From a virus: a stretch of DNA of 57,015 bases. Below, piece by piece: positions 8,130 through 27,503 of the stretch. The first letter of the stretch is position 1. Every line of letters begins with the position of its first letter. A program made the position numbers and the translations under genes. The stretch lies in IMG/VR virus record IMGVR_UViG_3300046170_000256. The stretch is one strand, 5' to 3'. The notes under the pieces are model-generated. The model made no database searches, had not been told where the DNA came from, and saw only the letters and a program-made list of their open reading frames with translations.

Positions 8130-8192
8130 TTTCGTTGCGTAACGCAATGCAAGGCGACTCCGAACGCCAGTTTTCGGTGCAAGGATGTGAAC

Positions 8193-8546
8193 ATGACGGA
8201 AGAGCCAGAGAAGGCCAAACAGCTTCCAGAACCCAAAGGTTATAAATTACTTATCGCTCTGCCCGCCCCCGACGAAAAAACGGAAGGCGGCATCATCAAG
8301 GCGTATGAAACACTCAAGGTGGAAGAGGTTGGTTCCATTTGCGGTTTTGTGCTCAAGGTGGGAGCAGATGCTTACAAGGACGAAAAGCGATTTCCCAATG
8401 GCCCCTATTGTCAAGAGGGTGACTGGGTATTGATGCGGTCCTATAGCGGCACTAGATTCAAGGTGCATGGTAAGGAGTTTCGACTAATCAACGATGACAG
8501 CGTAGAGGCTGTAGTTGACGACCCACGGGGGATTGAAAAAGCATGA
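8193..8546 (+). CDS. GroES/Cpn10-like co-chaperonin
   Basis: KLLIALP..EKTEGGII...GDWVLMRSYSGTRFKVHGKEFRLINDDSVEAVV follows the GroES layout. ATG 8193 has AAGGA 7 nt upstream. Confidence 0.6.
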   Translation: MTEEPEKAKQLPEPKGYKLLIALPAPDEKTEGGIIKAYETLKVEEVGSICGFVLKVGADAYKDEKRFPNGPYCQEGDWVLMRSYSGTRFKVHGKEFRLINDDSVEAVVDDPRGIEKA

Positions 8547-9340
8547 GCGAAGATCACATGGAAGCGGAACAGGAGTCCATGACAAACGAGGAGAGATTCC
8601 TTGGTGTCAGAACCCAGATCGGCACTAAGCCGAACGAGGGTAGCTCCGACCCGAATATGGACATCGAGGTTGTTGACGACAGAGAACCCGAAGACCGCAA
8701 ACCAATTGCGAAGTCAAAGGAACCTGCTGGCGACGATAACGATGACGAGCTTCAGGGCTATGGCGATAAGGTCAAGAAGCGAATTAATAAGCTCCGTTAT
8801 GACCAACATCAAGAACGGCGCTTGCGTGAAGACGCAGAGCGTTTGCGGGAAGAGGCGGTTAAAGTTGCTCAGCAGTATGCAGAGCAGAATCGCAACCTCC
8901 AACGTATCCTCCATCAAGGGGAAGGCACGTTAATCAATCAGTCAGAGCAACGGGCGACAATGGCTCTTGCTCAGGCAGAGATGGCTTACCGTCAGGCGGT
9001 TGAGGAAGGGAATACTGATAATCAGATTGCGGCTCAAAAAGCCCTCAATCATGCTCAGTATGAACTTGGCAATATTGCTCAGCGTAGCAATCAATACAAG
9101 CAACGAAAGCCGTTGCCAGATGACGCGGTCCTTGCTCAACAACAACAAGCATATAGGCAACAGCAAGAGCAGGCTCAGCAGGCTCAGCAACAAATAAGAA
9201 AGCCCAGTGAGAAAGCGATGTCTTGGGCTGATAATAACAAGTGGTTTCAGTCAGAAGACCACATGGAAATGACCGCGTATGCTTATGGCGTACACGAAAA
9301 AATGATTCGTCAGGAAGGGTTTGACCCAGGAAGGCGATGA
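8543..9340 (+). CDS. Scaffold-like coiled-coil protein (upstream frame)
   Basis: 265 aa, acidic N-terminus, Q/E/R-rich helices, sits just before the capsid genes. Ends AGG CGA TGA. Confidence 0.55.
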   Translation: MSEDHMEAEQESMTNEERFLGVRTQIGTKPNEGSSDPNMDIEVVDDREPEDRKPIAKSKEPAGDDNDDELQGYGDKVKKRINKLRYDQHQERRLREDAERLREEAVKVAQQYAEQNRNLQRILHQGEGTLINQSEQRATMALAQAEMAYRQAVEEGNTDNQIAAQKALNHAQYELGNIAQRSNQYKQRKPLPDDAVLAQQQQAYRQQQEQAQQAQQQIRKPSEKAMSWADNNKWFQSEDHMEMTAYAYGVHEKMIRQEGFDPGRR

Positions 9341-9599
9341 ATACTATGAAGAACTTGACCGGCGAGTACAGGGCAAGTTCCCAGAATACTTTGGTGAAGA
9401 GAGTAGTGGCTCGACCTATGACTCCGAGAGTAAGGTCTCCTCGACTTCCCGAAGCCCCTCCGTGGTGGTGGCTCCTTCCGCAAGGAACAATGGCGCCAAA
9501 CCACGCAAAGTGAGGTTGAGCCGCACCCAAGTCGCACTCGCTAAGCGTCTTGGTCTTACACCCGAACAATATGCCAACCAATTACTCAAGGAGAGATAA
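9321..9599 (+). CDS. Scaffold C-terminal-like segment in the +1 frame (no ATG, only TTG without a spaced SD)
   Basis: 92-aa ORF with no internal Met. C-terminal RLGLTPEQYANQLL helix-turn-helix-like tail. Probably expressed as a fusion with 8543-9340. Confidence 0.45.
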   Translation: MTQEGDEYYEELDRRVQGKFPEYFGEESSGSTYDSESKVSSTSRSPSVVVAPSARNNGAKPRKVRLSRTQVALAKRLGLTPEQYANQLLKER

Positions 9600-9601
9600 T
9601 C

Positions 9602-10054
9602 ATGGCAGAAGAGCGCACAAAGCGGGATACACAGGCCCGTGAGGAAGATCAACGTCCGTCAGATTCATGGATGCCTGCGTCCGTGCTACCGACCCCCGAG
9701 CCACAGGATGGCTGGGTATTTCGGTGGGTACGAACCAGCACCTTGGGTCACGCAGACAACACCAATGTCTCTCAGAAGTTTAGGGAAGGATGGGTACCAG
9801 TGAAGGCTGAAGACCATCAAGAGCTAAATGTAATGTCAGACATTGACTCTCGTTTTGAAGGCAACATCGAGATCGGAGGCTTATTGCTATGCAAGGCGCC
9901 CGAGACCAAGATGAAGGCCCGCGAAGAGCATTTCCAACAAATGGCATCTAACCAGATGGAGTCTGTGGATAACAACTTCCTCAAGCAAAACGATCCCCGA
10001 ATGCCCGTTCTGAATCCAGAGCGGTCTACTCGGACAACCTTTGGCCGCAACTAG
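9602..10054 (+). CDS. Hypothetical head-module protein
   Basis: 150-aa ORF, placed by position only. Confidence 0.55.
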   Translation: MAEERTKRDTQAREEDQRPSDSWMPASVLPTPEPQDGWVFRWVRTSTLGHADNTNVSQKFREGWVPVKAEDHQELNVMSDIDSRFEGNIEIGGLLLCKAPETKMKAREEHFQQMASNQMESVDNNFLKQNDPRMPVLNPERSTRTTFGRN

Positions 10055-10097
10055 CCTAATAAGGCAAAGCGGCTGTTAACTTTTAAGGAGATAGGAT

Positions 10098-10685
10098 ATG
10101 GCTACTACAGCTACTCCAATGGGTGCAGAACCCGTAGGTACGCTAAGTGCCTCCGGTTCCTTCACCGGGAAAGTCCGTCATATTAAAATTGCCTCTGGCT
10201 ATGCCACTGGCGTTTTTTATGGTGACTTTGTAAAACTGGTTGCTACGGGAACAGTAGAGAAGGCGGCGGTTACGACTGCGGCTGTTGCTGGAACTGTTGG
10301 CGTGTTCTGTGGTTGTTCTTACACAGATCCCGGCACTGGTCAACCAACCTTTAGCCAAAGCTGGCCTGCGTCAACTGTAGCATCTGATGCTATGGCTTAC
10401 GTCTGTGATGACCCCAAGCTCTTGATGCAAATGCAAGGCGACGGATCTATCGCTCAGACTGGTCTTGGTAACAACGTAAAAGCAATTAGCACTGCTGGCT
10501 CCACAGCTATCGGTCGCAGTAAGAATGCACTTGATGCTTCTACAATTGCTACCACTAACACGTTCCCACTCCGCATCGTAGACTTTGTTGACGGGCCTGA
10601 CAGTGCTGTAGGTGATTCTTTCACCGACTGTATTGTTACTTGGTTACCCGGAAGCCACGCATACGATACGGCACTTGGCGTTTAA
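10098..10685 (+). CDS. Putative capsid decoration/cement or second head protein
   Basis: 195 aa, strong SD AAGGAG, immediately upstream of the capsid gene. Function inferred from position only. Confidence 0.35.
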   Translation: MATTATPMGAEPVGTLSASGSFTGKVRHIKIASGYATGVFYGDFVKLVATGTVEKAAVTTAAVAGTVGVFCGCSYTDPGTGQPTFSQSWPASTVASDAMAYVCDDPKLLMQMQGDGSIAQTGLGNNVKAISTAGSTAIGRSKNALDASTIATTNTFPLRIVDFVDGPDSAVGDSFTDCIVTWLPGSHAYDTALGV

Positions 10686-10698
10686 GGAGGCATAAACA

Positions 10699-11607
10699 AT
10701 GGCTATTTCACGCGCACAAATGCTGAAAGAGCTTTTACCCGGCCTGAACGCCTTGTTCGGTCTGGAGTATGAGCGTTACGACGATGAGCACACGATGATT
10801 TACGAAACTGAATCATCCGAGCGTTCGTTTGAAGAAGAAGTGAAGTTGTCTGGATTCGGTGCCGCACCGGTCAAAGCTGAAGGCGCCGCCATCAGTTACG
10901 ACTCAGCACAAGAATCCTTCACTGCTCGCTATAACCACGAAACTATCGCCCTCGGCTTCTCGATCACTGAGGAAGCTATGGAAGATAACTTGTATGACTC
11001 TTTGTCTGCTCGTTACACCAAGGCGCTGGCTCGTGCTATGGCTCACACCAAGCAGGTTAAGTCGGCAAATCCGCTTAACGACGGCTTTACGTCTTACAAC
11101 TCTGGTGACGGCGTAACGCTGTTCAGCACGGCTCACCCGCTAGTAAACGGTGGCACTAACGCTAACCGTCCTGCTGTTGCGGCTGATCTGAATGAGACCT
11201 CTTTGGAAGATGCAGTGATTAACATCGCGGCGTTTACCGATGAGCGTGGTCTGCTGATCGCGGCACGTCCTCGTCGTCTGATCGTTCCACCCTCGCTCCA
11301 GTTTGTAGCAACTCGATTGCTTGAAACTGAAGGTCGGGTTGGTACGGCTGACAACGACATCAACGCCCTTCGTAACAACGGGTCAATCCCAGAAGGCTAC
11401 TCAGTCAATCACTTCTTGACTGATACCAATGCCTTCTTCTTGATTACCGACGTACCGAACGGCATGAAGCACTTCAACAGAACAGCGTTGGAGACTTCAA
11501 TGGACGGCGACTTTGATACTGGCAACGTCCGGTACAAGGCTCGTGAGCGATACAGCTTCGGCGTATCAGATCCTCTGGGAATCTACGGATCACCCGGCAC
11601 GTCCTGA
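10699..11607 (+). CDS. Major capsid protein (HK97-fold type presumed)
   Basis: 302 aa, SD AAGGAGG, followed by a strong terminator. Size and position are typical of a major capsid protein. Confidence 0.6.
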   Translation: MAISRAQMLKELLPGLNALFGLEYERYDDEHTMIYETESSERSFEEEVKLSGFGAAPVKAEGAAISYDSAQESFTARYNHETIALGFSITEEAMEDNLYDSLSARYTKALARAMAHTKQVKSANPLNDGFTSYNSGDGVTLFSTAHPLVNGGTNANRPAVAADLNETSLEDAVINIAAFTDERGLLIAARPRRLIVPPSLQFVATRLLETEGRVGTADNDINALRNNGSIPEGYSVNHFLTDTNAFFLITDVPNGMKHFNRTALETSMDGDFDTGNVRYKARERYSFGVSDPLGIYGSPGTS

Positions 11608-11614
11608 TAAATAC

Positions 11615-11634
11615 GGGGGCTTCGGCCCCCTTTT
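11615..11634 (+). terminator. Rho-independent terminator GGGGGC-UUCG-GCCCCC + UUUU
   Basis: Perfect 6-bp GC stem, UUCG tetraloop and T-run, 8 nt after the capsid stop. Confidence 0.8.
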
Positions 11635-11691
11635 CCCCTGACTGATGTTCCATGTGGAACACTCAGACACTTGCCAAGACAGGAGATTGAC

Positions 11692-11907
11692 ATGGCTAAC
11701 ACAACATTTGATGGACCAGTTCGGTCACAAAACGGATTTCAAGACATCAGCAAAGCGTCTGGAACCGGAACCGTTACTGAGAACATCTCTATTTCACACG
11801 ACGGAACTAACAGCGTTGTAATTTTCAAGGATCTGCCAACCTCTGATCCATCGGTTGCCGGCCAGCTTTATAGCAATTCTGGTGTGCTGACTGTATCTGC
11901 GGGTTAA
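11692..11907 (+). CDS. Small virion-module protein
   Basis: ATG 11692 with AGGAG upstream, 71 aa, bracketed by twin terminators. Confidence 0.55.
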   Translation: MANTTFDGPVRSQNGFQDISKASGTGTVTENISISHDGTNSVVIFKDLPTSDPSVAGQLYSNSGVLTVSAG

Positions 11908-11912
11908 TTATT

Positions 11913-11930
11913 GGGGCTTCGGCCCCCTTT
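11913..11930 (+). terminator. Second terminator GGGGC-UUCG-GCCCC + CUUU
   Basis: Same stem-loop core as 11615-11634. Lies inside the TTG-extended ORF 11911, which argues for the 11944 start. Confidence 0.7.
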
Positions 11931-11943
11931 ATTGGAGGATACA

Positions 11944-12351
11944 ATGGCTGACGCAGTTACCAGTCAAACAATCCAAGACGGTGCTCGAAAAGCTGTCTTG
12001 AAGTTTACGAATATTAGCGATGGGACCGGAGAGGCCGCTGTCGTGAAGGTTGACGTATCCGCGCTCAGCGCAGACCCGATGAGCAAGTCTGCTTGCACCG
12101 GAGTCAACATAGAGTCTATTCGATATTCAACTATCGGGATGGGCATTAAGATTTTTTATGATGCAACATCTGACGCATTGGTTTGGGAAATCCCTGCCGA
12201 TTACTCAGATACTGTTGACTTCTCAGACGTAAGTGGAATCCCCAACAACGCAGGCTCAGGCAAGACCGGAGACGTATCTTTTACTACGGTTGGCGCTGGT
12301 GCTGGTGATGTGTACACCGTTGTCTTGACGGTTATTAAGCAGTACAGCTAA
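11944..12351 (+). CDS. Hypothetical virion-module protein
   Basis: ATG 11944 preceded by GGAGG, 135 aa. Confidence 0.6.
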   Translation: MADAVTSQTIQDGARKAVLKFTNISDGTGEAAVVKVDVSALSADPMSKSACTGVNIESIRYSTIGMGIKIFYDATSDALVWEIPADYSDTVDFSDVSGIPNNAGSGKTGDVSFTTVGAGAGDVYTVVLTVIKQYS

Positions 12352-12554
12352 TGCGGATTTACTACAAGTCGGGCGGCAAAACGAAGTCAAAGGTTAACGA
12401 GGCCGGGAACTACACCAAGCCGACCATGAGGAAGCGCCTGTTCAGTCAGATAAAATCTGGCGGCAAGGGCGGCAGTCCCGGTCAGTGGAGTGCCCGTAAA
12501 GCGCAAATGCTAGCCAAGCAGTACAAGGCAAAAGGCGGAGGCTACAAAGACTGA
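12351..12554 (+). CDS. Small lysine-rich basic protein 1
   Basis: 67 aa, GGKGGSPGQWSARKAQMLAKQYKAKGGGYK, ATGA-type coupling. Confidence 0.6.
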   Translation: MRIYYKSGGKTKSKVNEAGNYTKPTMRKRLFSQIKSGGKGGSPGQWSARKAQMLAKQYKAKGGGYKD

Positions 12555-12805
12555 TGGCGCTGAAGAAGTCGCAGAAGTCACTGAAGAGCTGGACCAAGCA
12601 GAAGTGGCGCACTAAGTCCGGTAAGCCTAGCACCCAAGGCAAGAAGGCTACGGGAGAGCGATATCTACCTGAAAAGGCGATCAAGTCGCTAAGCGCAAAA
12701 GAGTATGCGGCGACCAGCAGAAAGAAAAAAGCGGATACCAAGAAGGGCAAGCAGTTCTCAAGCCAACCAAAAAAGGTGGCCAAGAAGACAGCGAGGCACA
12801 GGTAA
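12554..12805 (+). CDS. Small lysine-rich basic protein 2
   Basis: 83 aa, about 30 percent K/R, coupled start and stop. Confidence 0.6.
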   Translation: MALKKSQKSLKSWTKQKWRTKSGKPSTQGKKATGERYLPEKAIKSLSAKEYAATSRKKKADTKKGKQFSSQPKKVAKKTARHR

Positions 12806-13068
12806 TGGCGACCAAGAAGCCGGCGAAAGGCAAGGCCAAAGTCAAAGTCACATCTACTGGCAAGAAGGTCAGTTACGGTCAGGCGGGCAAGGCTAAAGGT
12901 GGTGGTGCTAGGGTAAAGCCCGGAACCAGCAAGGGCGATAGCTACTGCGCTCGCTCTCTAGGAATCAAGAAGCGACTGTCTAAGGACAAGCAAAACGACC
13001 CCAATACACCTAACAACCTCTCCCGTAAGCGGTGGAAGTGCTCTGGTGCCAAGTCTAAGCGAAAGTAG
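12805..13068 (+). CDS. Small lysine-rich basic protein 3
   Basis: 87 aa, KKPAKGKAKVKV..., coupled start. Confidence 0.6.
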   Translation: MATKKPAKGKAKVKVTSTGKKVSYGQAGKAKGGGARVKPGTSKGDSYCARSLGIKKRLSKDKQNDPNTPNNLSRKRWKCSGAKSKRK

Positions 13069-13070
13069 TT

Positions 13071-13172
13071 ATGCCGATTAGTCGAGCACAAACAGGTAAG
13101 CAAGTAAAAAATGCCCCAGCCTCCAGAAAGGCAAAGGTCAAGACTAACAAGAGTAAGAGGAAGAAGGCGTAA
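13071..13172 (+). CDS. Unlisted 33-aa lysine-rich micro-ORF (MPISRAQTGKQVKNAPASRKAKVKTNKSKRKKA)
   Basis: Hand translation. ATG is 2 nt after the upstream TAG, and its TAA overlaps the next ATG (13172), so it fills the gap exactly. Confidence 0.45.
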   Translation: MPISRAQTGKQVKNAPASRKAKVKTNKSKRKKA

Positions 13173-13867
13173 TGGCGACAAGCGGCACAACCAGCTTTAC
13201 TCTTGACCTGTCAGACATCATGGAAGAGGCGTATGAGCGGGCAGGTCTGGAGCTTCGTGATGGGTATGATTACCGGACTGCTCGTCGGAGCATTGATCTG
13301 CTTATGCTTGAGTGGCAAAACAGGGGTCTTAACCTCTGGACGGTACAGAATACCACGCTGGCTCTTGTGGCAGGAACGTCATCATACGACCTTGATGCTG
13401 ACAAGTTAGACATAATTGAGGGCTTGCTTCGTACAGACGCTGGTGACCCAGCAAAGCAGTCCGACCTTACAATGCAAAGAATTTCGGTGAGCCAGTACGC
13501 TCATCAGACCAACAAGCTAACTCAGGGCCGACCGTTGCAGTATTATGTTCAGCGGAAGCCAACCGGTATAACCATCCATGTTTGGCCAACGCCTGACGCT
13601 ACGCAGACGTATACCTTTGCGTACTACTATATGGACCGGATAGAAGATACAGGCAGTCCCGCATCAAACAACATGGATGTGCCGGCAAGGTTCTTGCCTT
13701 GTTTGGTTGCGGGGCTTGCCTACCAGATTGCCAGCAAGAAGCCAGAAGCGATGCAGTTAGCTCCTGCACTGAAGCAGGTGTACGAGGAGCAGTGGGCATT
13801 AGCGGCAGACGCGGCCCGCGAAAAAGCATCTTTGTACATGTCTCCGGGTGGCTATAACAACTTATGA
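13172..13867 (+). CDS. Putative head-tail adaptor/connector protein
   Basis: 231 aa, placed by position after the head genes only. Confidence 0.3.
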   Translation: MATSGTTSFTLDLSDIMEEAYERAGLELRDGYDYRTARRSIDLLMLEWQNRGLNLWTVQNTTLALVAGTSSYDLDADKLDIIEGLLRTDAGDPAKQSDLTMQRISVSQYAHQTNKLTQGRPLQYYVQRKPTGITIHVWPTPDATQTYTFAYYYMDRIEDTGSPASNNMDVPARFLPCLVAGLAYQIASKKPEAMQLAPALKQVYEEQWALAADAAREKASLYMSPGGYNNL

Positions 13868-14634
13868 GTAGCTATGTTACTGGCAAGAAAGCCTACGGGT
13901 TTTGCGACAGAACAGGCTTTCGATATCCATTACGGGACTTGGTGCGTCAGATAGAAGATGGCCGCTGGAATGGATTGTTAGTTGGTCGGGATGTGGTAGA
14001 TCAAGACCAGCCCCAACTTAAACTGGGAGATATTAATGCAAGCGATGCACAAGCTCTTAGGTTTCCTCGGCCTGACAACGGACTTGACGAAAGCCGCGCT
14101 CTCTTTGCTTGGAACCCCGTGGGTGGTGGCGATACTGCTTTCGGTAGCCGCACTGTTGGCCTTGACATATCAGGTCTGGTTGGGCGTGTAAGCGTTGAGG
14201 TATCTGTACCCGCCCCGACAGGCGACGTAACTGTCTACCCTACGGGGGTTGCCGGCGATGTGGCCGCAAACGGGGTCACAGTGGCCGCAGACACCATAAC
14301 TAGTTACGCGATAACAGTTAGCAATCCCGGCTCAGGCAACAAGTATTATCAAGACGGGTCATTGCCGGGGGCTGGCGGGGTAAATATCAATGAAGGTAGC
14401 ACTTACCGCTATGATCAGTCTGACAATAGTAACTCTGGTCACCCACTTCGCTTCTCAACAACAGTGGATGGGACACATGCAGGTGGATCAGCATACACGA
14501 CTGGCGTGACATACGTTGGGACACCGGGAAGTGCCGGTGCCTACACACAGATTGTGGTGGCAGTAGGCGCCCCAACACTCTACACATACTGTAGTGTCCA
14601 CAGCGGCATGGGTTATCGGGTAAACACACTATGA
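13864..14634 (+). CDS. Hypothetical virion protein
   Basis: 256-aa coupled ORF. Confidence 0.55.
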   Translation: MSSYVTGKKAYGFCDRTGFRYPLRDLVRQIEDGRWNGLLVGRDVVDQDQPQLKLGDINASDAQALRFPRPDNGLDESRALFAWNPVGGGDTAFGSRTVGLDISGLVGRVSVEVSVPAPTGDVTVYPTGVAGDVAANGVTVAADTITSYAITVSNPGSGNKYYQDGSLPGAGGVNINEGSTYRYDQSDNSNSGHPLRFSTTVDGTHAGGSAYTTGVTYVGTPGSAGAYTQIVVAVGAPTLYTYCSVHSGMGYRVNTL

Positions 14635-15272
14635 GCTTTACATATACGACGCTAAAGCAAGCGATTCAGGACTATGTAGAGTCCAGTGAAACATCATTTG
14701 TTAATAATCTGCCAACCTTTATCCAGCAGGCGGAAGATAGAATACTAAAGCGGGTACAGCTTCCTGACTTCAGAAAGAATGTGACGGGTACCGTGGCGTC
14801 AGCCAACCCATACTTGATTATGCCTTCGGACTTCCTGACCCCATACTCTATGGCCATTGATGACTCTGGCTATGATTACCTGCTATTTAAAGACGTAAAC
14901 TTCATCAGGCAAGCATATCCTTCGTCGGCTACGCAGGCCGCTCCTAAGTATTACGGCATCTTTAGTGACACTTCTTTCATCGTTGGGCCGACTCCCGACA
15001 AGGCTTACGATGTAGAGCTTCATTACTTCCACAAGCCAGAGTCGATCACAACCTCATCAACAGGAACAAGCTGGTTGGGAGAGAATGCTGACTCAACACT
15101 ACTTTATGGTTGCTTGCTGGAAGCGTATACTTACCTTAAAGGTGACCCAGACCTGATGCAGTTGTATGGGGGTCGCTATGAGGAAGCCCTTGCGCGCCTT
15201 GAAGAGTTGGGCGAAGGCTACAGCACAACAGATAGCTACCGAGGTGGCGCAGTGAGGAAGCCTAGAACATAA
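14631..15272 (+). CDS. Hypothetical virion protein
   Basis: 213-aa coupled ORF. Confidence 0.55.
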   Translation: MSFTYTTLKQAIQDYVESSETSFVNNLPTFIQQAEDRILKRVQLPDFRKNVTGTVASANPYLIMPSDFLTPYSMAIDDSGYDYLLFKDVNFIRQAYPSSATQAAPKYYGIFSDTSFIVGPTPDKAYDVELHYFHKPESITTSSTGTSWLGENADSTLLYGCLLEAYTYLKGDPDLMQLYGGRYEEALARLEELGEGYSTTDSYRGGAVRKPRT

Positions 15273-15550
15273 TGTTGGATTTAGCGGTTGGTACGGTCGG
15301 GGTAAAAACTACGTCGGGCCGTGGCTTCAATCCTGACGAGGTGGCGGATCGTTGCCTCACTAAAATTATTCATGTATCTGATGATGCTGGACCTGCTGTT
15401 AAGGAGCAGGCCAAGGCATTTAAGGAGCAGATCCGGTCGGTGCTGGTCTTCTATATGAAGGAAGCAGTGAACAGCGACCGCACCACCGTATGCAACGCAC
15501 TCGCGGATGCAGGACAAAAAGACTTAGCTGAAATGATTAGGAGACTCTAA
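15272..15550 (+). CDS. Hypothetical protein
   Basis: 92-aa coupled ORF. Confidence 0.5.
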   Translation: MLDLAVGTVGVKTTSGRGFNPDEVADRCLTKIIHVSDDAGPAVKEQAKAFKEQIRSVLVFYMKEAVNSDRTTVCNALADAGQKDLAEMIRRL

Positions 15551-15551
15551 G

Positions 15552-15998
15552 ATGGCATTTACCGGTAACTATATGTGCACCTCTTTCAAGCAGGAATTGA
15601 TGGAAGGTAAGCACAACTTCACGAATGGGTCAGGCGACACGTTCAAGCTAGCCCTTTACACCAACAGTGCGACCTTTACTGCAAGCACGACTGACTATAC
15701 GGCTACTAACGAAATTAGCGGCACTGGCTACTCTGCTGGCGGCGGCACGTTAACAAACGTCACCCCCACCACGTCAGGCACCACCGCCCTAACTGACTTT
15801 GCAGACCTGACCTTTAGCTCGGCGACAATTACTGCCAGAGGCGCGCTAATCTACAACACTACGGCTGGCGCTGGAGCGGGTACGACGGACTCTGTTGTTG
15901 TCCTTGATTTTGGTGCTGACAAGACATCAAGTGCAGGCGACTTCACAATCATCTTCCCCACCGCTGACGCCTCTAACGCCATTATCAGGATTGCATAA
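15552..15998 (+). CDS. Hypothetical T/S/G/A-rich virion protein
   Basis: 148-aa ORF. Confidence 0.55.
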   Translation: MAFTGNYMCTSFKQELMEGKHNFTNGSGDTFKLALYTNSATFTASTTDYTATNEISGTGYSAGGGTLTNVTPTTSGTTALTDFADLTFSSATITARGALIYNTTAGAGAGTTDSVVVLDFGADKTSSAGDFTIIFPTADASNAIIRIA

Positions 15999-16000
15999 CG

Positions 16001-16741
16001 ATGGCCCTTGTTGTTGCTGATCGAGTAAAAGAGGTAACGACGACTACCGGCACGGGCGCAATATCTTTGGGTGGCGCTCAAGCTAACTTCGTTACCTTCT
16101 CCTCTGCGCTGTCAGACGGGGACACAACTTATTATGCGATTGTTGACAACGACAACATAGCGTATGAGGTGGGTCTCGGGACGTATGCGTCTTCTGGTAA
16201 CACGTTAACAAGAACCACAGTGCTTGATAGCTCTAACAGTGGGTCTGCCGTGTCTTTTGGTGCGGGCCAGAAAGACGTGTTTGTCACATACCCTGCGGAC
16301 AAGTCCGTATACGGGGACGCTACGGGGAATGTGGCCGTAACAAGTTTGACTGCGGCAGGGCTTGCCTATCCAACGTCTGATGGATCAACAGATCAGTTCC
16401 TAAAAACCAATGGATCAGGAACGCTGGCCTTTGCGGATGTGCCTGCTGGGATAGAGTCTACCTTCACGGTACAAACTTCAAACTTTACCTCCGTTGCAAG
16501 CGTTAGATACTACATCAGCACGGCTGGCGGGGCGGTGACCATGACGCTACCCGCCTCTCCAACTGCTGGGGATCAAGTTGCCTTTGTCGATTATACCGGC
16601 AATTTTGCTACGACGGCGGCGGTGCTTGGAAGAAACGGCAGTAACATTATGGGGTCTGCCTCAGACATGAACCTAGACGTGGACTACTTCTCAGGAACGG
16701 TAGAGTATGTAGACGCCACACAGGGCTGGAAACTAATATGA
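16001..16741 (+). CDS. Tail-fibre-like protein
   Basis: N-terminal VKEVTTTTGTGAISLGGA...YEVGLGTY...LTRTTVLDSSN, a pattern common in podophage fibre N-domains. Confidence 0.4.
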   Translation: MALVVADRVKEVTTTTGTGAISLGGAQANFVTFSSALSDGDTTYYAIVDNDNIAYEVGLGTYASSGNTLTRTTVLDSSNSGSAVSFGAGQKDVFVTYPADKSVYGDATGNVAVTSLTAAGLAYPTSDGSTDQFLKTNGSGTLAFADVPAGIESTFTVQTSNFTSVASVRYYISTAGGAVTMTLPASPTAGDQVAFVDYTGNFATTAAVLGRNGSNIMGSASDMNLDVDYFSGTVEYVDATQGWKLI

Positions 16742-17445
16742 GTAATCTAAAAGACTTTCTTGGCGGGCTTGATCCAGCCGTATGGACGGATGCAAAAGCA
16801 GGGTACTTAGACGCTAGTGTCAGTTCACGCGCCGCCGCATCAACAGCACTTACTAATGCGACATGGACAGATACTAAGGCTGGCTATATTGATGCAGGCA
16901 TCAGCACTAGGGCACCGTCATCAACAGCACTGTCAACCGCTACATGGACCAACGCCAGAGCAGGGAATCTAGACAACCTAGATGCGCCTATCAGTGGGGT
17001 TGGCGGATTGTCTAGTAATGTCTGGACAAACGCCAAGGCTGGTTACCTAGATACCAATATAAGCTCTAGAGCGCCATCGTCCACAGCGTTATCCTCTAAC
17101 GTATGGAGCACAACGTATCGCGACCGTATTGATACAAACGTATCTAGCCGATTAAGCTCTTGTAGCACTCAGCACCTCTTTACCAACACAGTGGTAAACA
17201 GCTCTAGCGACTACGACACATGGACGGTGTCTTCAATAAGTAAAGCCAAGTCTTTCTTGACCGGAATCAACATAACCGGTGCCGCTAATGCCGCTCAAGG
17301 TAACAACGCAAGAATTGTAAATAGCACAAATGTGCGTTATCTATCCGGCTATGTATATGGTGGCAGTTATTACGGAGGCAGTAGCTACACGTTTATGGGT
17401 AATAACGGATATAGAACTAACCTTGATTTAGTCAACATAAGCTAG
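16738..17445 (+). CDS. Repeat-containing fibre-like protein
   Basis: About four 22-aa repeats W(T/S)(D/N)AKAGY(L/I)D..(V/I)S(S/T)RA.(A/S)STAL. Confidence 0.45.
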   Translation: MSNLKDFLGGLDPAVWTDAKAGYLDASVSSRAAASTALTNATWTDTKAGYIDAGISTRAPSSTALSTATWTNARAGNLDNLDAPISGVGGLSSNVWTNAKAGYLDTNISSRAPSSTALSSNVWSTTYRDRIDTNVSSRLSSCSTQHLFTNTVVNSSSDYDTWTVSSISKAKSFLTGINITGAANAAQGNNARIVNSTNVRYLSGYVYGGSYYGGSSYTFMGNNGYRTNLDLVNIS

Positions 17446-17454
17446 GACTATCGT
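17442..17454 (+). promoter_or_regulatory. CTAGGACTATCGT motif copy (also supplies the stop TAG and an AGGA SD)
   Basis: Lies directly upstream of ATG 17456. Confidence 0.4.
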
Positions 17455-17455
17455 T

Positions 17456-17947
17456 ATGTTATTTTTTATAAAAGCAAAAGACAGCGGGCTTCTGGTAGGG
17501 TATACGGAGACGCTTGATGCTACTCCTGCTGAAGTGGATAGTAATTATGTGGCGTGGAGCAATATCCCCGTTAGTCCTCCTTTTGCCTCTGAACAAGATG
17601 CTGTGGTTAGGCTAGAAGAAGTTATAGGCAAGGTGCTTGATGATCAAGGACTAACAGATCCGCCCCCTCCAGAGCCTTTTTATATAAACGGAATGTCTGT
17701 TTTGCAGTTTAGGGGTAGATTTACTGTGAGTGAGAAGTCGGCAATTTACTCGTCAACCGACGTTGGCGTTAAAATTATACTGGATGACTTGAATGCGGCT
17801 TCTTTTATAAGCGTTGCAGATCCTGCGACAATTCAAGCGGTGGACTACTTTATTTCTGCTTCTCTGATTGATCCGGGCAGACGGTCAGACTTACTAGCTC
17901 AAGTGGAAGCTACGGAAGATACGCCCGTGGAATACTACGCTCCTTAA
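17456..17947 (+). CDS. Hypothetical protein (accessory island)
   Basis: 163-aa ORF in a locally AT-richer stretch. Confidence 0.55.
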   Translation: MLFFIKAKDSGLLVGYTETLDATPAEVDSNYVAWSNIPVSPPFASEQDAVVRLEEVIGKVLDDQGLTDPPPPEPFYINGMSVLQFRGRFTVSEKSAIYSSTDVGVKIILDDLNAASFISVADPATIQAVDYFISASLIDPGRRSDLLAQVEATEDTPVEYYAP

Positions 17948-17962
17948 AGCCGGGCACTTTAA

Positions 17963-18625
17963 GTGATCAGTTATTTAAAAAAACGCATTCAAAATCCATT
18001 GGGAGACAGTTTAAACACCTGTGTCTTGGCGATTGATGACGAACTAATACGCAGATTCAGAGAATTATCTGAAGACCTTTGGTCCATAAATAAATTTAAT
18101 GCGGATCAGTTTAAAGAAGCTGAAGTAATACCCCTAGTAGCTAGCGCCGCAGAGATTGATGACGAGGGTGCTTTTAGGACGGTGACAACAGAGGCCGTTA
18201 GCTCCGACTTTGAGAAGCTCTTGGGGAATATAGAGTTTGTAATGGCCCTCTCTATAAACCAAGCCAGCCTATTAAGATCCGTTATGATTAGGGTCAAGTC
18301 AAAATGCAAAATCAAACCCCACATTGATGATACTTTTGCGGGTATACCTCACTCGGTGTACCGATGCCAGCTATCCGGGGACATAAGCCTAAATTGGACT
18401 AGCGACTTAGGCGGGAGTCACAGCTTTATACCGGAAGCTAAGAGAGCGGTGTATGTGCCTCCCGGCACGATCCAAGAGGAAGAAAATTTAGGTCTTAATG
18501 ACAGCATTCATTTAGTTATGTACATGCAGAACAAGGTTGCAGATAATGCAATGAAGACGCTAGCCGAGAAACAGAGGCTGGGCTGGGATAAAGAAAGGCA
18601 CAACAAGCTTTATGCTCAATATTGA
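17963..18625 (+). CDS. Hypothetical protein, possible cupin/dioxygenase-like
   Basis: 220 aa. GTG start is uncertain (no SD). KPHIDD ... IHLVMY could be an HxD...H facial triad. Confidence 0.3.
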   Translation: MISYLKKRIQNPLGDSLNTCVLAIDDELIRRFRELSEDLWSINKFNADQFKEAEVIPLVASAAEIDDEGAFRTVTTEAVSSDFEKLLGNIEFVMALSINQASLLRSVMIRVKSKCKIKPHIDDTFAGIPHSVYRCQLSGDISLNWTSDLGGSHSFIPEAKRAVYVPPGTIQEEENLGLNDSIHLVMYMQNKVADNAMKTLAEKQRLGWDKERHNKLYAQY

Positions 18626-18649
18626 TTGTGAGTTTAGAATGACATCAAG

Positions 18650-18922
18650 ATGCAAGAATTAAGTGCGTATTTGCTAAGGGTTGGCGATGCCACAAGCCAG
18701 TGGATTAACGTAGTAATCCTGCTTGGTCCCAATCCCAACGAGTCCATATCTGGCCGTGCCTATCGCCTTCGCAGGCAGGTGGTGTGGAAGCAGGTTCGTG
18801 TGTGTATAGACATTTTGTTTTTACCATTTGAGAAAAATCACTGCAAAGCGTCGTATGACGCAGACTTAAAACGGGCGGCTATCATGCTTGCCACGAAGAG
18901 GATTGTGGAATGCGACAAGTAA
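18650..18922 (+). CDS. Hypothetical protein
   Basis: 90-aa ORF. Confidence 0.5.
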   Translation: MQELSAYLLRVGDATSQWINVVILLGPNPNESISGRAYRLRRQVVWKQVRVCIDILFLPFEKNHCKASYDADLKRAAIMLATKRIVECDK

Positions 18923-19680
18923 TTATAGGAGCGTCACTGCTGTTGCTAGCAGGGTGCTCGACATCAACTAGCCAGTATTACGAGGCCGTGCAAAAAACAG
19001 CGGAGGCTAATGCGTCAGCGGCGCAAGCCAAGTTTGAGGCTCTATCAAAGATCGCGTCTTCTGGCGATGGACAGGCCGCGAGCGCGGCTGTAATGGCGCT
19101 GGCGCTAACCAACACTCAGTCTGTCCAGCCCATGCCTCAGCAGTCGGACGCCCTTCAATGGGCCTCTGTGTTAGCGGCACCCATTTCATCTCTTGGGATG
19201 ATGTGGATGCAAGCAGACTCAGCCAAGACTATGGCGCGATATAACAGCCAAGTAGATATGGCAAGAATTTCAGCAGAGTCTGCGGATAGTCAGGCTTTGT
19301 ATGGTGCGTTTGTAGACTCGCATCAAGTTACCGGAGACGTTCTCGGTAACATAGATTACACCCCTTTTGTGAACGGAATGGTAACACTGGGCACCTCTGG
19401 CATTGACTCAAACGTAGACATTGCGACGAAGGGGCTTGATGTGGCCAATAATCTAGGCACTGCCGGGATGAGCAACCTAACCAACCTCGGGGTAAATGGA
19501 ATGACCCTTCTGGGGCAGGCTGGAGAAGACGGACTAAATGCTTTGGTTGAAGCCAACTCGGACTGGCTAAACTATTCTGTAACAAGAGACATTACCTTTG
19601 CTGGCATGATGGCTACAGAGCAGAGCGGCTGTGTTGCAACAGCGAACTCTGAGGGTCAGATTGTTGTGACCTGTAACTAA
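18910..19680 (+). CDS. Lipoprotein
   Basis: MRQVIIGASLLLLAGC signal peptide with LAGC lipobox. GAGGA SD 7 nt upstream. Confidence 0.7.
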   Translation: MRQVIIGASLLLLAGCSTSTSQYYEAVQKTAEANASAAQAKFEALSKIASSGDGQAASAAVMALALTNTQSVQPMPQQSDALQWASVLAAPISSLGMMWMQADSAKTMARYNSQVDMARISAESADSQALYGAFVDSHQVTGDVLGNIDYTPFVNGMVTLGTSGIDSNVDIATKGLDVANNLGTAGMSNLTNLGVNGMTLLGQAGEDGLNALVEANSDWLNYSVTRDITFAGMMATEQSGCVATANSEGQIVVTCN

Positions 19681-19685
19681 TCATC

Positions 19686-19913
19686 ATGGAGTTAACGATG
19701 GAAGTTATTGAGGCCATCTTGCAATGGATCGTTATGCCTATCACGGCATTTGTTTGGCTGATCTTTATGCGACAGCAGGACCACACCACGCAGATTGCAG
19801 TTATCAAAACGGAGACCGAGATTGTTCGTCAGTCTCACGACCGGGAGATGCGAGATATCAAAGGGAAGCTGGATAAAATCCTAGAGAAGCTAGACGACAA
19901 GGCTGACAAGTAA
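19686..19913 (+). CDS. Small N-terminal-TM plus coiled-coil membrane protein
   Basis: 75 aa. Hydrophobic WIVMPITAFVWLIF followed by a charged helix. Confidence 0.55.
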   Translation: MELTMEVIEAILQWIVMPITAFVWLIFMRQQDHTTQIAVIKTETEIVRQSHDREMRDIKGKLDKILEKLDDKADK

Positions 19914-20551
19914 TGTTTGGGGCATCGTCGTTCTCAGAGATCCCGCTCTCACAGGCGGTAGAAGGTCCGATTGGTGTTACTGGCTTACAGGCTACCGCAC
20001 TTGTAGGTAACAGCGTTAACGTCAATGGTGACGTAACAATATTCCCATCTGGCAACCTCGCCACCGCAAGCGTTGGTTCTGTAACGGTCACGGGTATTGC
20101 GAATGCCACTGTCACTGGCTTGTCAGGAACAGCGTCTGTTGGCGATGCCATTGCTTCAGCGGATGCCAATGCCACCGTCTCTGGGCTTTTAGCAACAGGA
20201 TCAGTTAACGCCACCGCCCCTGCTGTGACGGGGGACGCAAACGCTTTCCCGGCAGGCTTGAGCGCGACTGGCGGTGTTGGCATAGCCTCTGTAATTGGCA
20301 TTGCAAACGTGACAGTCACGGGGCTTGGCGCTACCGGATCTGTCGGGGCCGTAGTTGTTACCGGCGGAGCCACCGCGAACTTGTCGATGGTAGGGCTAAC
20401 CGGATCTGTCGGGGTTCCTAGCACATTTACACAAACCAATATATTAGTTACCGGCTTGTCGGCTACCGCAACAGAGGGGACCGCGCAGGTTATCACATGG
20501 AATGAAATCAAGCCGAATCAAGACCCGAACTGGGTTGAGATAGCGGCCTAG
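19913..20551 (+). CDS. Repeat-rich fibre/virion protein
   Basis: Repeated (V/L)TG(L/I).ATGSVG units. TAATG coupling. The plus frame is preferred over the antisense ORF 19858-20511. Confidence 0.55.
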   Translation: MFGASSFSEIPLSQAVEGPIGVTGLQATALVGNSVNVNGDVTIFPSGNLATASVGSVTVTGIANATVTGLSGTASVGDAIASADANATVSGLLATGSVNATAPAVTGDANAFPAGLSATGGVGIASVIGIANVTVTGLGATGSVGAVVVTGGATANLSMVGLTGSVGVPSTFTQTNILVTGLSATATEGTAQVITWNEIKPNQDPNWVEIAA

Positions 20552-20559
20552 AGGGGAAC

Positions 20560-21534
20560 ATGCCTAGCACTTACACAACGAATCTCGGCATAGAGAAGAT
20601 TGAGACTGGCCAGCAGGCTGGAACATGGGGCAATACCACCAATACCAACTTCGACATTATTGATCAAGCGATCAACGGCATTGCCTCTGTCACCCTCACC
20701 TCCTCGAACATCACGTCTGGAGGAGCCAAGGCTCTCCCAATAACTAATGGTGCTGTTTCTGATGGACGCAACGCATTTATCAGCGTGGTTGATGGCGGCG
20801 ATATCGGGGGTGCAGGTTACGTTCAGTTGACGCCAAACGACTCAGAGAAAATCCTGCACATTAGAAACAGCCTGTCAGGGTCTCGTTCCCTGTTTATATT
20901 TCAAGGAACGTACAATGCTTCAAACGACTTTGAGCTAGCCAATGGCAAAGACGCCTTGGTTAAGTTTGACGGTGCAGGAAGTGGAGCCGTTGTTTCTCAG
21001 GTCTACAGTGATCTTGTTGCAGGCAACATAACATCCACGGTGACTGGCAATGTAACCGGTAATTTAACTGGCAATGTGGCCGGCACAGTGACTGGCAATG
21101 TCAACGGCAACCTTACAGGCGACGTGACGGGAGCGGTAATAGGTAACGTCACAGGCAATATAACATCTACCGGACTATCCTCTTTTTCTAGTATTGATGT
21201 TAACGGCGGAGCAATTGACGGGACGCCTATCGGCGCATCTAGCGCGGCGGCAGGCACGTTTACGAATGTCACCGCGACAGGAACTGTGACCGTTGCCACG
21301 GCAGACATTAACGGCGGGGCAATTGACGGAACCAATATCGGGGCGTCAACTCCCGGCGCTGGCACCTTCTCGACCCTCAAGGCTAATGCCGATCACATTA
21401 TCATTACAACGGCTCAGACCCCCTCGTCGGTTAGTGCGGCAGGAACTCAGGGTGAGGTTGCGTGGGATGCGTCTTACCTATATGTGTGTATAGCAACCAA
21501 TACTTGGAGGCGCGTGGCGCTGGCTAGCTGGTAA
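20560..21534 (+). CDS. Tail fibre protein
   Basis: N-terminal LGIEKIETGQQAGTWGNTTNTNFDIIDQAING, a GNVTGNLTGNVAGTVTGNVNGNLTGDVTG repeat, and C-terminal GEVAWDASYLYVCIATNTWRRVALASW. Confidence 0.6.
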   Translation: MPSTYTTNLGIEKIETGQQAGTWGNTTNTNFDIIDQAINGIASVTLTSSNITSGGAKALPITNGAVSDGRNAFISVVDGGDIGGAGYVQLTPNDSEKILHIRNSLSGSRSLFIFQGTYNASNDFELANGKDALVKFDGAGSGAVVSQVYSDLVAGNITSTVTGNVTGNLTGNVAGTVTGNVNGNLTGDVTGAVIGNVTGNITSTGLSSFSSIDVNGGAIDGTPIGASSAAAGTFTNVTATGTVTVATADINGGAIDGTNIGASTPGAGTFSTLKANADHIIITTAQTPSSVSAAGTQGEVAWDASYLYVCIATNTWRRVALASW

Positions 21535-21935
21535 TGCTCGATCTTCTGGTTGGTCCGGTTACTGGCTTGCTGGACAAGTTTATACCTGATGCTGACGAAA
21601 GAAATAGGCTTGCCCATGAGATTGCCACATTGTCTGAGCGACACGCTCAAGAACTGGCTAAGGGTCAGTTGGAGATCAACAAAACAGAAGCGGCGCATAA
21701 GTCCATGTTTGTTGCAGGATGGCGTCCTTTTGTTGGCTGGACTTGTTCTATTGCTCTTTGCTGGCATTTTGTGGTGTCTCCAGTTGTTATCTTTGGTGCG
21801 GCTTATGCTGGAGTGGCTCTTCCTGAGTTACCCGTGTTTGACATGAGTAGCTTAATGACCGTGTTGCTGGGGATGCTTGGCCTCGGAGGTCTCAGGACTT
21901 ATGAGAAAACAAAAGGGGTTGCGCGCAAACAATGA
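21534..21935 (+). CDS. Holin, GTA-type 3-TM family-like
   Basis: MLDLLVGPVTGLLDKFIPDADERNRL...INKTEAAHKSMFVAGWRPFVGW plus TM segments. Lies upstream of the endolysin. Confidence 0.55.
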   Translation: MLDLLVGPVTGLLDKFIPDADERNRLAHEIATLSERHAQELAKGQLEINKTEAAHKSMFVAGWRPFVGWTCSIALCWHFVVSPVVIFGAAYAGVALPELPVFDMSSLMTVLLGMLGLGGLRTYEKTKGVARKQ

Positions 21936-22132
21936 GTGTATATGACCTCGAAAGATTGCAAGTCATTCCCCGTCTGATGATGGTGGCAATGATCTTTATG
22001 ACATACCGCGTTGTTGAATGGTTTATGACCTTGCCGGCACCAAGCCTAGAGCAGGCTGGTTTGGTTAGCGTAATGACGGGCGCACTTACCGGTAGCTTTG
22101 GTTTGTTCTTGGGCGCTGGGAAGAAGGGATGA
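21932..22132 (+). CDS. Small 2-TM membrane protein (holin/antiholin partner?)
   Basis: 66 aa with two hydrophobic helices, between the holin and the endolysin. Confidence 0.45.
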   Translation: MSVYDLERLQVIPRLMMVAMIFMTYRVVEWFMTLPAPSLEQAGLVSVMTGALTGSFGLFLGAGKKG

Positions 22133-22479
22133 GTCAGTTTAAGTATTTTGATATTAACGAATTTGCATGCCACGAGACCGGAGAGAACCAGATCAAGGAT
22201 GAGCTTGTTCATTGCCTAGACATGTTAAGAGAAAGGTGCGGCTTCCCCTTTGTCATTACCTCTGGCTATCGCTCAGAGCGACATCCCATAGAGGCAGAAA
22301 AGGCAAAGCCGGGAACACACACTCAGGGCATAGCGGCGGACATTAAGGTTGCCGATGGAGTCCAGCGGCTAGCTATTGTCGCTAACGCTATTGATCTTGG
22401 CTTCTCTGGTATCGGGGTGGCTAAACATTTTGTTCATGTGGACATAAGGGGCACTACTCCGGTCATGTGGGCGTACTAG
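22129..22479 (+). CDS. Endolysin, peptidase M15 (D-Ala-D-Ala carboxypeptidase-like)
   Basis: SGYRSERHP...HTQGIAADI...HFVHVD zinc-ligand pattern, 116 aa. Confidence 0.7.
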   Translation: MSQFKYFDINEFACHETGENQIKDELVHCLDMLRERCGFPFVITSGYRSERHPIEAEKAKPGTHTQGIAADIKVADGVQRLAIVANAIDLGFSGIGVAKHFVHVDIRGTTPVMWAY

Positions 22480-22488
22480 GGTTTTAGA

Positions 22489-24354: not shown

Positions 24355-24548
24355 TGAGGTATACCACACTCCCTGTTGCGCGACCGGACTATGACGCAGA
24401 GAATGAGCAGGTCACTAGGCGCACCATCGAGCAAGCCTTGCAGGATGTTACGGGCACGGTGGAAGGCAATCGGGACAAGACAAACAAGCTGTCTTCCCTA
24501 GCCCTGCGACGGTTTCAGTTTTTACTAATGGGTGCCACTAATGGCTGA
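24354..24548 (+). CDS. Hypothetical small protein
   Basis: 64-aa coupled ORF. Confidence 0.45.
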   Translation: MRYTTLPVARPDYDAENEQVTRRTIEQALQDVTGTVEGNRDKTNKLSSLALRRFQFLLMGATNG

Positions 24549-24870
24549 TGTGATCAAGGTACTTGGGCAGGCAGATCCTGCGGCCACAACAACAACAGTC
24601 TTGTACACGGTCCCCAACCTGAACTTGACTACTTGTAGCTCACTTGTTATTTGCAACAGAAGCGCCGGCCCTATTGCTTTCCGTGTCAGCGTACACGTTA
24701 ATGACGCCACGGCAGACAATAAGCAGTTCCTTTATTACGACAAACAACTTGTCGCCAACGATACTCTTGCGGCGATCCTTGGTATTACCTTAAACCAAAA
24801 CGATGTAATCAAAGTCTATGCTAGCGGTACAGGCATGAGCTTTAACTTATTTGGCGTAGAGACTAGCTAA
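24541..24870 (+). CDS. Hypothetical virion protein
   Basis: ATG 24541 overlaps the upstream stop (ATGGCTGA). Confidence 0.5.
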   Translation: MADVIKVLGQADPAATTTTVLYTVPNLNLTTCSSLVICNRSAGPIAFRVSVHVNDATADNKQFLYYDKQLVANDTLAAILGITLNQNDVIKVYASGTGMSFNLFGVETS

Positions 24871-24872
24871 CT

Positions 24873-27503
24873 ATGAACAGATACCCCGCTAAACCTATGA
24901 TGGACCAAATGGCACAGCATGGCCGATACGGTGACAGCATGCTTGTGCACATGAACCCAATCGAGGTCGCAGGAATTGCATCTCTGTCCCCCACAGGGAG
25001 CCTGACAACCAACCCAGTCACGGGACAGCCAGAGGCGTTCTTGCCATTCCTTGCCCCCGCACTGGGCATGCTGGGCGGTCAGCTCGGTCTGAGCGCATTA
25101 AGCTCAGCGGCGCTGACAGGTATCGGCACGGCGGCAGTGACGGGCGATCTCAAGCGGGGATTGCTGTCTGGTCTGACAGCCGGTCTGGGTAGCGGTCTTG
25201 GTGAGGGTATCGGTGGTTTGTTTGATAGTGCTCAGGAAGGGGTAAATGTTGCGACCACGAGTGCCGAGGCTCTTGGCACTGGCGCAGAGACTCTTGGTGC
25301 GGGTGCAGGGGGAGTGGATCTCTCTGGACTGGCCACCGAAAACGTCACCTCTAACTTAGCTCAAGCGTTTAACCCCAGTGCTGTTACCCCCGGCCTCACT
25401 GACTACACAGCGCAAGCCGCCGAAGCCGCATCTGGAGCCATGCAGGTTGCACCAGAGGCCGCAGGCTACATCTCAGAAGCTCCCGGCATGCTTGGGGATT
25501 TTGATACAGCAGTGGGCGGCTCTGGCATAGGGCAGACTGCACAAGGCTTTGTGGACAAGCTAGGCACGACCGGCCAATTGATGGGCATTGGTATTGGCTC
25601 AGGCCAGATGGCTCAGATGGACACGATGGAGGAGTTTGAGAAGCAACAGCGTCGGCTCCTAGAGGAGTCGGAGGCTAGCCGAGGAGAAGCATACGGCGAC
25701 CTGCAATCAGCATACGCAATGGCTCAGCCCGGAATAGCTCCCGGCTTTAGCCCTTACCGGTCACAAATGAGCCAGCGTACTTATGACTATGCGGCTCCCG
25801 GTATGGCGGCAGGGGGCGCCACCAGAACAGGTATGAGTCGCGCCCAGTGGAAAGCGTTATACGACATGCTACTAAAGCAGGACTACCCATTGCCACCGTT
25901 TGAGGAGTGGTATCAAAATGCGGCAGGCGATTCTGCCGAAGGCGCTGATGGTGATAGCGGAGAGGGCGATTCTCAAGCGCCGTCAGTGGAAGACAAGTTT
26001 GAAGTGCTTGATGAAAACGGCATGGATATTTTAGCGCCCGGATATTACGGGATGAAGAACTTTGGGACCGCGCAAACAGATACCGACGAGTACAAGGCTC
26101 TGGAAGCGGCTAAGCGAGGAGACCCACTAACCCCTGAGCAACAGAGCCTACTTGAAGGCTATTACAGAAGAAGGGAGGGGTTCCGAGCACAGCGAGAAAG
26201 AGCCATTGCTGAGGCACAGGGTACTGACTCGGCGGTCGATCCGCTGGCTAACTACCTGCAAGGCTCTGGTCTTTTCGGCTATACAACCGGCAACATCGGG
26301 GGCATAGACCCAGTTTCTATTCAAGCTGGACTGCGAGAGGACTACAAGATTGCGGCGCCTACCGACTATATGTCTGGGTTTGAGCCTGAGTTCCAATACT
26401 TTCAAGCAGACCCTAATGCACCCTTTATTCCTAGTCGAGCATATCGGCCAACTCAAGAAGGCGTTGACGATACCGGTACTTATTTTGATCCGATCATTGA
26501 CAGGGGAAGCTACTTAGAGCAATTACAAGACTACTACCGCACACTGGCAAGCTACGGTATGGGCGGAGATAACGCACCCGAAGAGCCTGTAGATGAGGAG
26601 CCGCCGGTTCAAGACCCCGGAACTGGCCCGACCACACCGGGAACGCCGACAACGCCTAGTGATCCGGTTAACCCCGGTACAGGCACTCCACCCGGAAGCA
26701 ACCCCTCTAGCCCGCCCTACAATCCACCCTACAATCCGTCCGCGCCAAGCGGTCCCTCGTTCGGCGGAGGAGGCAACTCTGGAGGTCATGCCGCTGGTGA
26801 CTATTACAAGATTGAAAACGGGAAGGTCGTTCGTTATACAATCAACAGTATCGTTGGGGTAGATCCAGAAGAGTACACCGACGAGGAATATTACGGGTCT
26901 CCGATAAGCGGATACTACATTGTAGATCAGACCACGGTGGGTGATGCAGGGGATGACACCTATGCTATTCAAGGCTCCTCCGGTCAATACGGAGAAGGTA
27001 TCTACTACAAGAACGGCAAGCTTTACAGCCACGCAAGTGAAGAGACACTAGCCAACATAAGGGCGGCAGGTAACACCCCTTACGGTATTGACCCGGCGCT
27101 TATGACCGACCTTGAGCGAGCGCATCATAGGATGCGATATCAGGCAGACCCGTCTGATGGATTCGTCGGCACTTCTGATTACAACTCATTCGGCGGTAGC
27201 CCTCAGCGCGATAACTCTGGTGCCTATGGCGCCGGTAACACTGTGACAGACGCAATAGCAGAGGGTATTGGTAATCCATCCGTGACGCTAGATAATAGCG
27301 AGGTTACTGAAAAGCAAGATGCGGGCGGGGTACACCCCATAGTTGCCGCGCTGTATGGCGATCCCACCAAGGGAACTGTCGTTGACACGCCCTATGAGGG
27401 TAGCTTTCAGTATTTTCGGGACAAGCAAAAGGAACAAGGACAGTGCCGCAACCTCAGCGAATCAGGTGCAGGCCACTCCGCAAGCCCCAGACATAGGCGT
27501 TAA
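24873..27503 (+). CDS. Internal-virion-type protein with Gly/Ala and Pro-rich tracts
   Basis: 876 aa. N-terminal GDSMLVHMNPIEVAGI...NPVTGQPEAFLPF and a PGTGPTTPGTPTTPSDP tract. Ends AGG CGT TAA. Confidence 0.55.
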   Translation: MNRYPAKPMMDQMAQHGRYGDSMLVHMNPIEVAGIASLSPTGSLTTNPVTGQPEAFLPFLAPALGMLGGQLGLSALSSAALTGIGTAAVTGDLKRGLLSGLTAGLGSGLGEGIGGLFDSAQEGVNVATTSAEALGTGAETLGAGAGGVDLSGLATENVTSNLAQAFNPSAVTPGLTDYTAQAAEAASGAMQVAPEAAGYISEAPGMLGDFDTAVGGSGIGQTAQGFVDKLGTTGQLMGIGIGSGQMAQMDTMEEFEKQQRRLLEESEASRGEAYGDLQSAYAMAQPGIAPGFSPYRSQMSQRTYDYAAPGMAAGGATRTGMSRAQWKALYDMLLKQDYPLPPFEEWYQNAAGDSAEGADGDSGEGDSQAPSVEDKFEVLDENGMDILAPGYYGMKNFGTAQTDTDEYKALEAAKRGDPLTPEQQSLLEGYYRRREGFRAQRERAIAEAQGTDSAVDPLANYLQGSGLFGYTTGNIGGIDPVSIQAGLREDYKIAAPTDYMSGFEPEFQYFQADPNAPFIPSRAYRPTQEGVDDTGTYFDPIIDRGSYLEQLQDYYRTLASYGMGGDNAPEEPVDEEPPVQDPGTGPTTPGTPTTPSDPVNPGTGTPPGSNPSSPPYNPPYNPSAPSGPSFGGGGNSGGHAAGDYYKIENGKVVRYTINSIVGVDPEEYTDEEYYGSPISGYYIVDQTTVGDAGDDTYAIQGSSGQYGEGIYYKNGKLYSHASEETLANIRAAGNTPYGIDPALMTDLERAHHRMRYQADPSDGFVGTSDYNSFGGSPQRDNSGAYGAGNTVTDAIAEGIGNPSVTLDNSEVTEKQDAGGVHPIVAALYGDPTKGTVVDTPYEGSFQYFRDKQKEQGQCRNLSESGAGHSASPRHRR

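Follow-up and report, generated by a model that had tools for sequence, protein, structure and literature searches.

The window analysed here is the whole stretch of 57,015 nucleotides of the IMG/VR virus record IMGVR_UViG_3300046170_000256, with a G+C content of 51%. Its positions 1–310 and 56706–57015 are identical (a direct terminal repeat or a circular overlap of 310 bp), so that the window has the appearance of a complete phage genome. An overlap of 310 bp is not a usual k-mer length of short-read assemblers, and it may hint at a long-read or single-molecule origin of the record. The lineage is present in seawater metagenomes of many studies. The gene under study belongs to the head module, and its coordinates and those of its neighbors are collected in Table 1. 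A Cpn10 gene lies inside this module, between the portal gene and the scaffold-like gene, and this arrangement is shared with phage 023Pt_psg01.

Table 1. Coordinates of the features discussed in the text, given as positions of the window.
Feature	Position	Strand	Basis or remark
Portal gene, 812 aa	5498..7936	+	Syntenic 023Pt_psg01 CDS 'head to tail connecting protein'
GroES-like co-chaperonin gene, directly upstream	8187..8546	+	phrog_3188, E = 1.6e-12; Pfam Cpn10, 36.7 bits (cut-off 21.1)
Scaffold-like head-assembly gene	8543..9599	+	phrog_28737 matches, homologs, synteny
Two CAGGAAGG octamers	9311..9334	+	Second copy created by the inserted A
Extra A, GACCC[A]GGAAGG, shifts the frame	9328	+	Private to the record; alignment with relatives
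TGA met in the shifted frame	9338..9340	+	GAT GAA (D E) in the single frame of the relatives
Major capsid protein gene, downstream	10699..11607	+	phrog_371, E = 3.2e-24; Pfam Phage_capsid_4, 48 bits (cut-off 27)
Large virion protein gene, broken	24873..28311	+	One extra base at 27436–27438

In the record, the scaffold-like gene consists of an ORF of 265 aa (8543–9340), whose 3' end reads GGA AGG CGA TGA with the stop at 9338–9340, and of a tail in the +1 frame that extends to 9599. The +1 frame is free of stops from 9306 to 9599, the TTG at 9321 is the first and sole start listed for it, and it encodes ...EGDEYYEELDRR...LLKER, which is also given as ...EGDEYYEELDRR...RLGLTPEQYANQLLKER. When one base is skipped at the split, a read-through protein of 351 aa is obtained, and 351 aa is also the length of the gene product once base 9328 is ignored. 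The octamer CAGGAAGG is found at 9311–9318 and again at 9327–9334. All of these details (the end of the ORF, the open +1 frame, the TTG start, the octamers, and the fusion product of about 351 aa) had been correctly described in a sequence-only reading of the window, which regarded the split either as a candidate recoding site or as an indel. Our comparison with relatives confirms that a one-base frame change splits the gene, and the indel was the correct alternative.

Both pieces belong to the family phrog_28737 and match its profile at adjoining positions, the first at 24–259 (E = 2.4e-22) and the second at 261–335 (E = 1.5e-11) of 341. The search of a large protein collection yielded 1,298 homologs of the scaffold-like gene, and the full-length homologs among the matches listed are single ORFs of about 330–353 aa; identity reaches 92% among these full-length homologs and 97% in a contig-end fragment. 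The two halves are in one frame in all 82 fetched loci that contain both halves, and the question of whether homologous phages encode one fused ORF, which had been raised with the recoding proposal, is thus answered in the affirmative by these loci and by the listed full-length homologs. In phage 023Pt_psg01 (MW574966), one annotated CDS, the 'kinesin-like protein' URG13098.1, is matched by both pieces, and it likewise follows a GroES-like gene and precedes a gene of 150 aa, a gene of about 200 aa, and the capsid gene. The gene is one ORF in this phage and in the members of phrog_28737, whereas it is split by an extra base in the window. A blastn search of GenBank phages with the scaffold-like gene gave no match, and only distant matches at the protein level exist there, the nearest being in the Roseobacter phages CRP-901/902, pelagiphage HTVC023P, and phage 023Pt_psg01. 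Related structural modules have been described for the Roseobacter phages CRP-901/902 and pelagiphage HTVC023P (PMC10149686).

At the DNA level, the difference from the relatives is one base, as the relatives have GACCC-GGAAGG where the window has GACCCAGGAAGG. The junction reads GAC CCG GAA GGC GAT GAA in the relatives and GAC CCA GGA AGG CGA TGA in the window, the extra A being located 10 nt upstream of the TGA stop. The protein of the closest relatives reads ...GFDPEGDEYYEEL... across this junction, and deletion of 9328 from the window results in an ORF of 351 aa with the same junction, GFDPEGDEYYEEL. Four metagenome or virome contigs from different samples are 99.6–99.9% identical to the window (L086 with 7142 bp, L085 with 7047 bp, L016 with 5343 bp, and L004 with 5008 bp), and each of them has exactly one gap relative to the window, which is the A at 9328. 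The more distant contigs L002, L003, L005, and L006 also lack it. In the ENA contig NODE_4058 (L002), a transposase-adapter remnant, AGATGTGTATAAGAGACAG, occupies positions 1–50 at the contig start, and because of this remnant the gene copy was called as a fragment of 212 aa (P0016). The Gln-rich stretch of the gene (...QQQQAYRQQQEQAQQAQQQ..., 9118–9181) is a hot spot of in-frame indels, as L003, L005, and L006, which are 94–98% identical, show several small compensating gaps within it.

The same result was obtained with four sequencing runs from four separate studies (X1, X2, X10, and X12), which were compared over 8500–28400 and whose contigs all leave out 9328; contigs lose rare variants, and a minority variant with the A could exist unseen in the sampled populations. 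In the contig of run X2, 9328 is the sole difference from the window over 8500–10192. A pattern scan that permitted base 9328 to be present or absent returned seven site matches in viral and metagenome collections, all seven without the extra A, and the best indexed run contained a fraction of 0.96 of the sampled words, which is about the score expected if the words across the insertion are absent. The extra A at 9328 is thus found in this record alone, and everywhere else the gene consists of one ORF. Just past the capsid gene, at 11558–11944, the contigs of X10 and X12 have 570 other letters in place of 308 bases of the window, and the stretch resembles a cassette that is swapped among phages which are otherwise nearly identical. 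The region 17132–18459 is covered by contigs of X1 and X2 and not by the otherwise collinear contigs of X10 and X12, and it is probably strain-variable.

The sequence-only reading had placed the frame change at AGG-CGA-TGA, that is, at the stop codon itself. The extra base is located 10 nt before this stop. Only in the downstream frame do the three codons that separate it from the stop spell the conserved E-G-D; at 9329–9337, the closest relatives have E-G-D in this frame and more distant ones E-S-D or similar, as opposed to G-R-R in the 0 frame. Across 9326–9340, L003 has CCC GAG GGT GAT GAT, in comparison to CCG GAA GGC GAT GAA in the others. These changes are at third positions of the downstream frame, which is therefore under selection right up to 9328. 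The switch of the selected frame is accordingly located at 9328, not at the stop codon, and the TGA at 9338–9340 results from the insertion and is no recoding signal.

Two further details had been put forward as possible signatures of slippage or recoding. The first was the repeated octamer, as the deletion of one unit together with the spacer also fuses the frames. This deletion would give IRQEGDEYY and remove GFDP, which is kept by all close relatives. At the octamer sites, the relatives have either CAGGAAGG...C-GGAAGG or CAAGAAGG...C-GGAAGG, and it is the inserted A that makes the second copy. Nor is such a pair conspicuous in the window, which contains 113 exact 8-mer pairs that are 9–30 nt apart, in comparison to 16–29 in shuffles. 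The second detail was that an AGG-CGN-stop context followed by a +1 ORF recurs at a second gene. This context occurs nine times in the window in any frame, and the extra base of the second gene lies some 65 nt before the stop, so that the shared context does not mark the frame change there. The octamer pair and the recurrence of AGG-CGN-stop are coincidental and no more than chance.

The second gene carries the same kind of defect as the scaffold-like gene. It encodes a large virion protein and reads as two ORFs, 24873–27503 (876 aa) and 27343–28311 (322 aa). One extra letter has no counterpart in any of the four runs, at 27436 in the alignments with X1 and X2 or at 27438 in those with X10 and X12, and deletion of either base results in a fused ORF of 1145 aa. 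In all 30 related loci, both parts are in one open frame of 635–1287 aa, and the stop that had been compared with AGG-CGA-TGA is AGG-CGT-TAA. At the Pro/Ala-rich repeat PAPAPTPAPAPPPAPAP (27640–27760), the summed contig depth of X1 and X2 is very high, with a maximum of about 7,600 at 27709, because contigs of other organisms are recruited by this low-complexity sequence. Two more ORF pairs, 3847–4572/4539–5249 and 41608–42336/40895–41704, were considered as further frameshifts and rejected, as the members of each pair match different families and are separate genes.

What the intact gene does can be addressed by its position and its predicted architecture. No Pfam family was found for it, the hits of a profile search against PDB were limited to designed helical repeats and to noise of the polyQ or coiled-coil kind, and Foldseek found no PDB match at E ≤ 0.001 and, in BFVD, only uncharacterized proteins. 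An AlphaFold2 model was made of the intact, 99%-identical protein of L004 with an alignment of 40 sequences, and it has a mean pLDDT of 74. The model predicts a disordered N-terminus, a long helical hairpin (75–155 and 158–187), a small helical domain (223–278), a disordered linker (285–304), and two short C-terminal helices (327–335 and 340–350). The C-terminal block 310–346 is nearly invariant across the 40 sequences of the family. The break falls between the predicted helices 241–258 and 265–278, and the truncated product would lose the invariant C-terminus. Within the head module, the gene follows the portal gene and precedes the major capsid gene, as expected for a scaffold gene, and judged from this position and the predicted architecture, its product is probably a scaffold. 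Scaffolds of the P22 gp8 type offer a comparison: they share the position between portal and capsid genes and a long helical hairpin with disordered linkers, which are predicted here, and the most conserved part of our family is likewise a short, predicted two-helix C-terminal end, which may correspond to the coat-binding helix pair of such elongated, mostly helical proteins. In contrast to this likeness, the searches of Pfam, PDB, and BFVD did not link the protein to a named scaffold family, either by sequence or by fold.

Taken as a whole, the comparison indicates that 8543–9599 is one scaffold-like gene for head assembly, and the marine podovirus that carries it is related to the HTVC023P/CRP-901 group. 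In the record, the frame of the gene is shifted by the extra A at 9328, so that translation hits the TGA 10 nt later, and the phage itself most likely makes one protein of 351 aa by ordinary translation. We consider it most likely, with a probability of roughly 0.75, that the extra A is a consensus error of the record that arose in sequencing, polishing, or assembly. We infer an error rather than a mutation because a second, equally private insertion breaks another virion gene of the same record, and as far as can be judged from outside the record's raw reads, an error is the most likely origin of base 9328. Over a stretch of 19.9 kb, the window differs from run X2 by nine substitutions in the listed pieces and by two indels, and both indels are frameshifts in virion genes. 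Against an error speaks that the insertion is not in a homopolymer, as platform indel errors are commonest in homopolymers.

A less likely alternative is that the A was truly present in the sequenced genome, or in a minority lineage, in which case the gene would encode a truncated product of 265 aa without the invariant C-terminal region. Such a genome would either be defective or depend on co-infection with intact relatives for its survival. The sequence around 9328 is compatible with a real mutation, as no homopolymer is present there, and a direct repeat that would otherwise be imperfect (CAGGAAGG ... C-GGAAGG) is made perfect by the insertion. Perfect repeats can be created from imperfect ones by misalignment mutagenesis, or by template switching during amplification. 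Rare variants, furthermore, are invisible in contig data. On the other hand, the variant was found in none of the four runs and in none of at least eight independent contigs, and the 86 C-terminal residues that would be lost hold the most conserved block of the family, with 310–346 almost wholly invariant among the 40 sequences. Moreover, the virion gene for the 1145-aa protein would have to carry a further lethal-looking frameshift in this genome, and we therefore prefer the error in the record.

Far less probable is a programmed +1 frameshift of the prfB type, in which ribosomes would shift at or before AGG-CGA-TGA and thereby produce the full-length protein. The resemblance to prfB, the gene for RF2, is real in some respects: in both cases, an in-frame TGA is preceded at a short distance by a purine-rich, Shine-Dalgarno-like stretch, AGGAAGG in the window, and the reading continues in the +1 frame. 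Since the +1 frame is open from 9306, any +1 shift within 9306–9340 would give the full-length product. However, the essential elements of prfB differ. The P-site codon of prfB, CUU-U, allows re-pairing in the +1 frame. In the window, the last sense codon, which would occupy the P-site, is CGA and its +1 codon is GAU, so that no re-pairing is possible, and the same holds for CCA GGA upstream; a slippery P-site codon is therefore missing. The Shine-Dalgarno-like stretch abuts the last sense codon in the window, whereas it is located 3 nt upstream in prfB, and the change of the conserved reading frame, which lies 10 nt ahead of the stop in the window, is a further difference from prfB. The codon in the A-site at the putative shift is TGA, and any out-of-frame reading soon meets a stop. 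AGG and CGA are ordinary codons in this genome, with 8.8 and 9.8 per thousand. With a shift at the stop, the protein would have GRR in the place of the EGD of the closest relatives and of ESD or similar residues in more distant ones. At the supposed twin site, about 65 nt separate the frame change from the stop that follows it. Furthermore, a scaffold-type protein would presumably be needed in abundance, which fits poorly with an inefficient shift. Most importantly, the split arrangement is conserved in no relative, as every one of them has an uninterrupted frame, up to a DNA identity of 99.9%. The candidate recoding site is thus not a real feature of this phage, and what had been taken for it is a one-base insertion peculiar to the record.

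Equally hard to credit is the combined possibility of a real A together with inefficient +1 frameshifting for both the scaffold-like and the 1145-aa protein, or with complementation of the defective genome by co-infection. Transcriptional slippage can be dismissed, as there is no homopolymer at 9328.

In summary, the value of the finding lies in quality control, with an error in the record as the most likely origin of the split. At least two one-base insertions are present in the record (9328 and 27436–27438), each of which splits a virion gene, and these would mislead annotation, as four ORFs would be described in place of two, together with spurious recoding candidates. The biology behind the split gene is ordinary: the intact gene represents a head-module family that is unnamed and widespread in marine podoviruses, with about 1,300 homologs.
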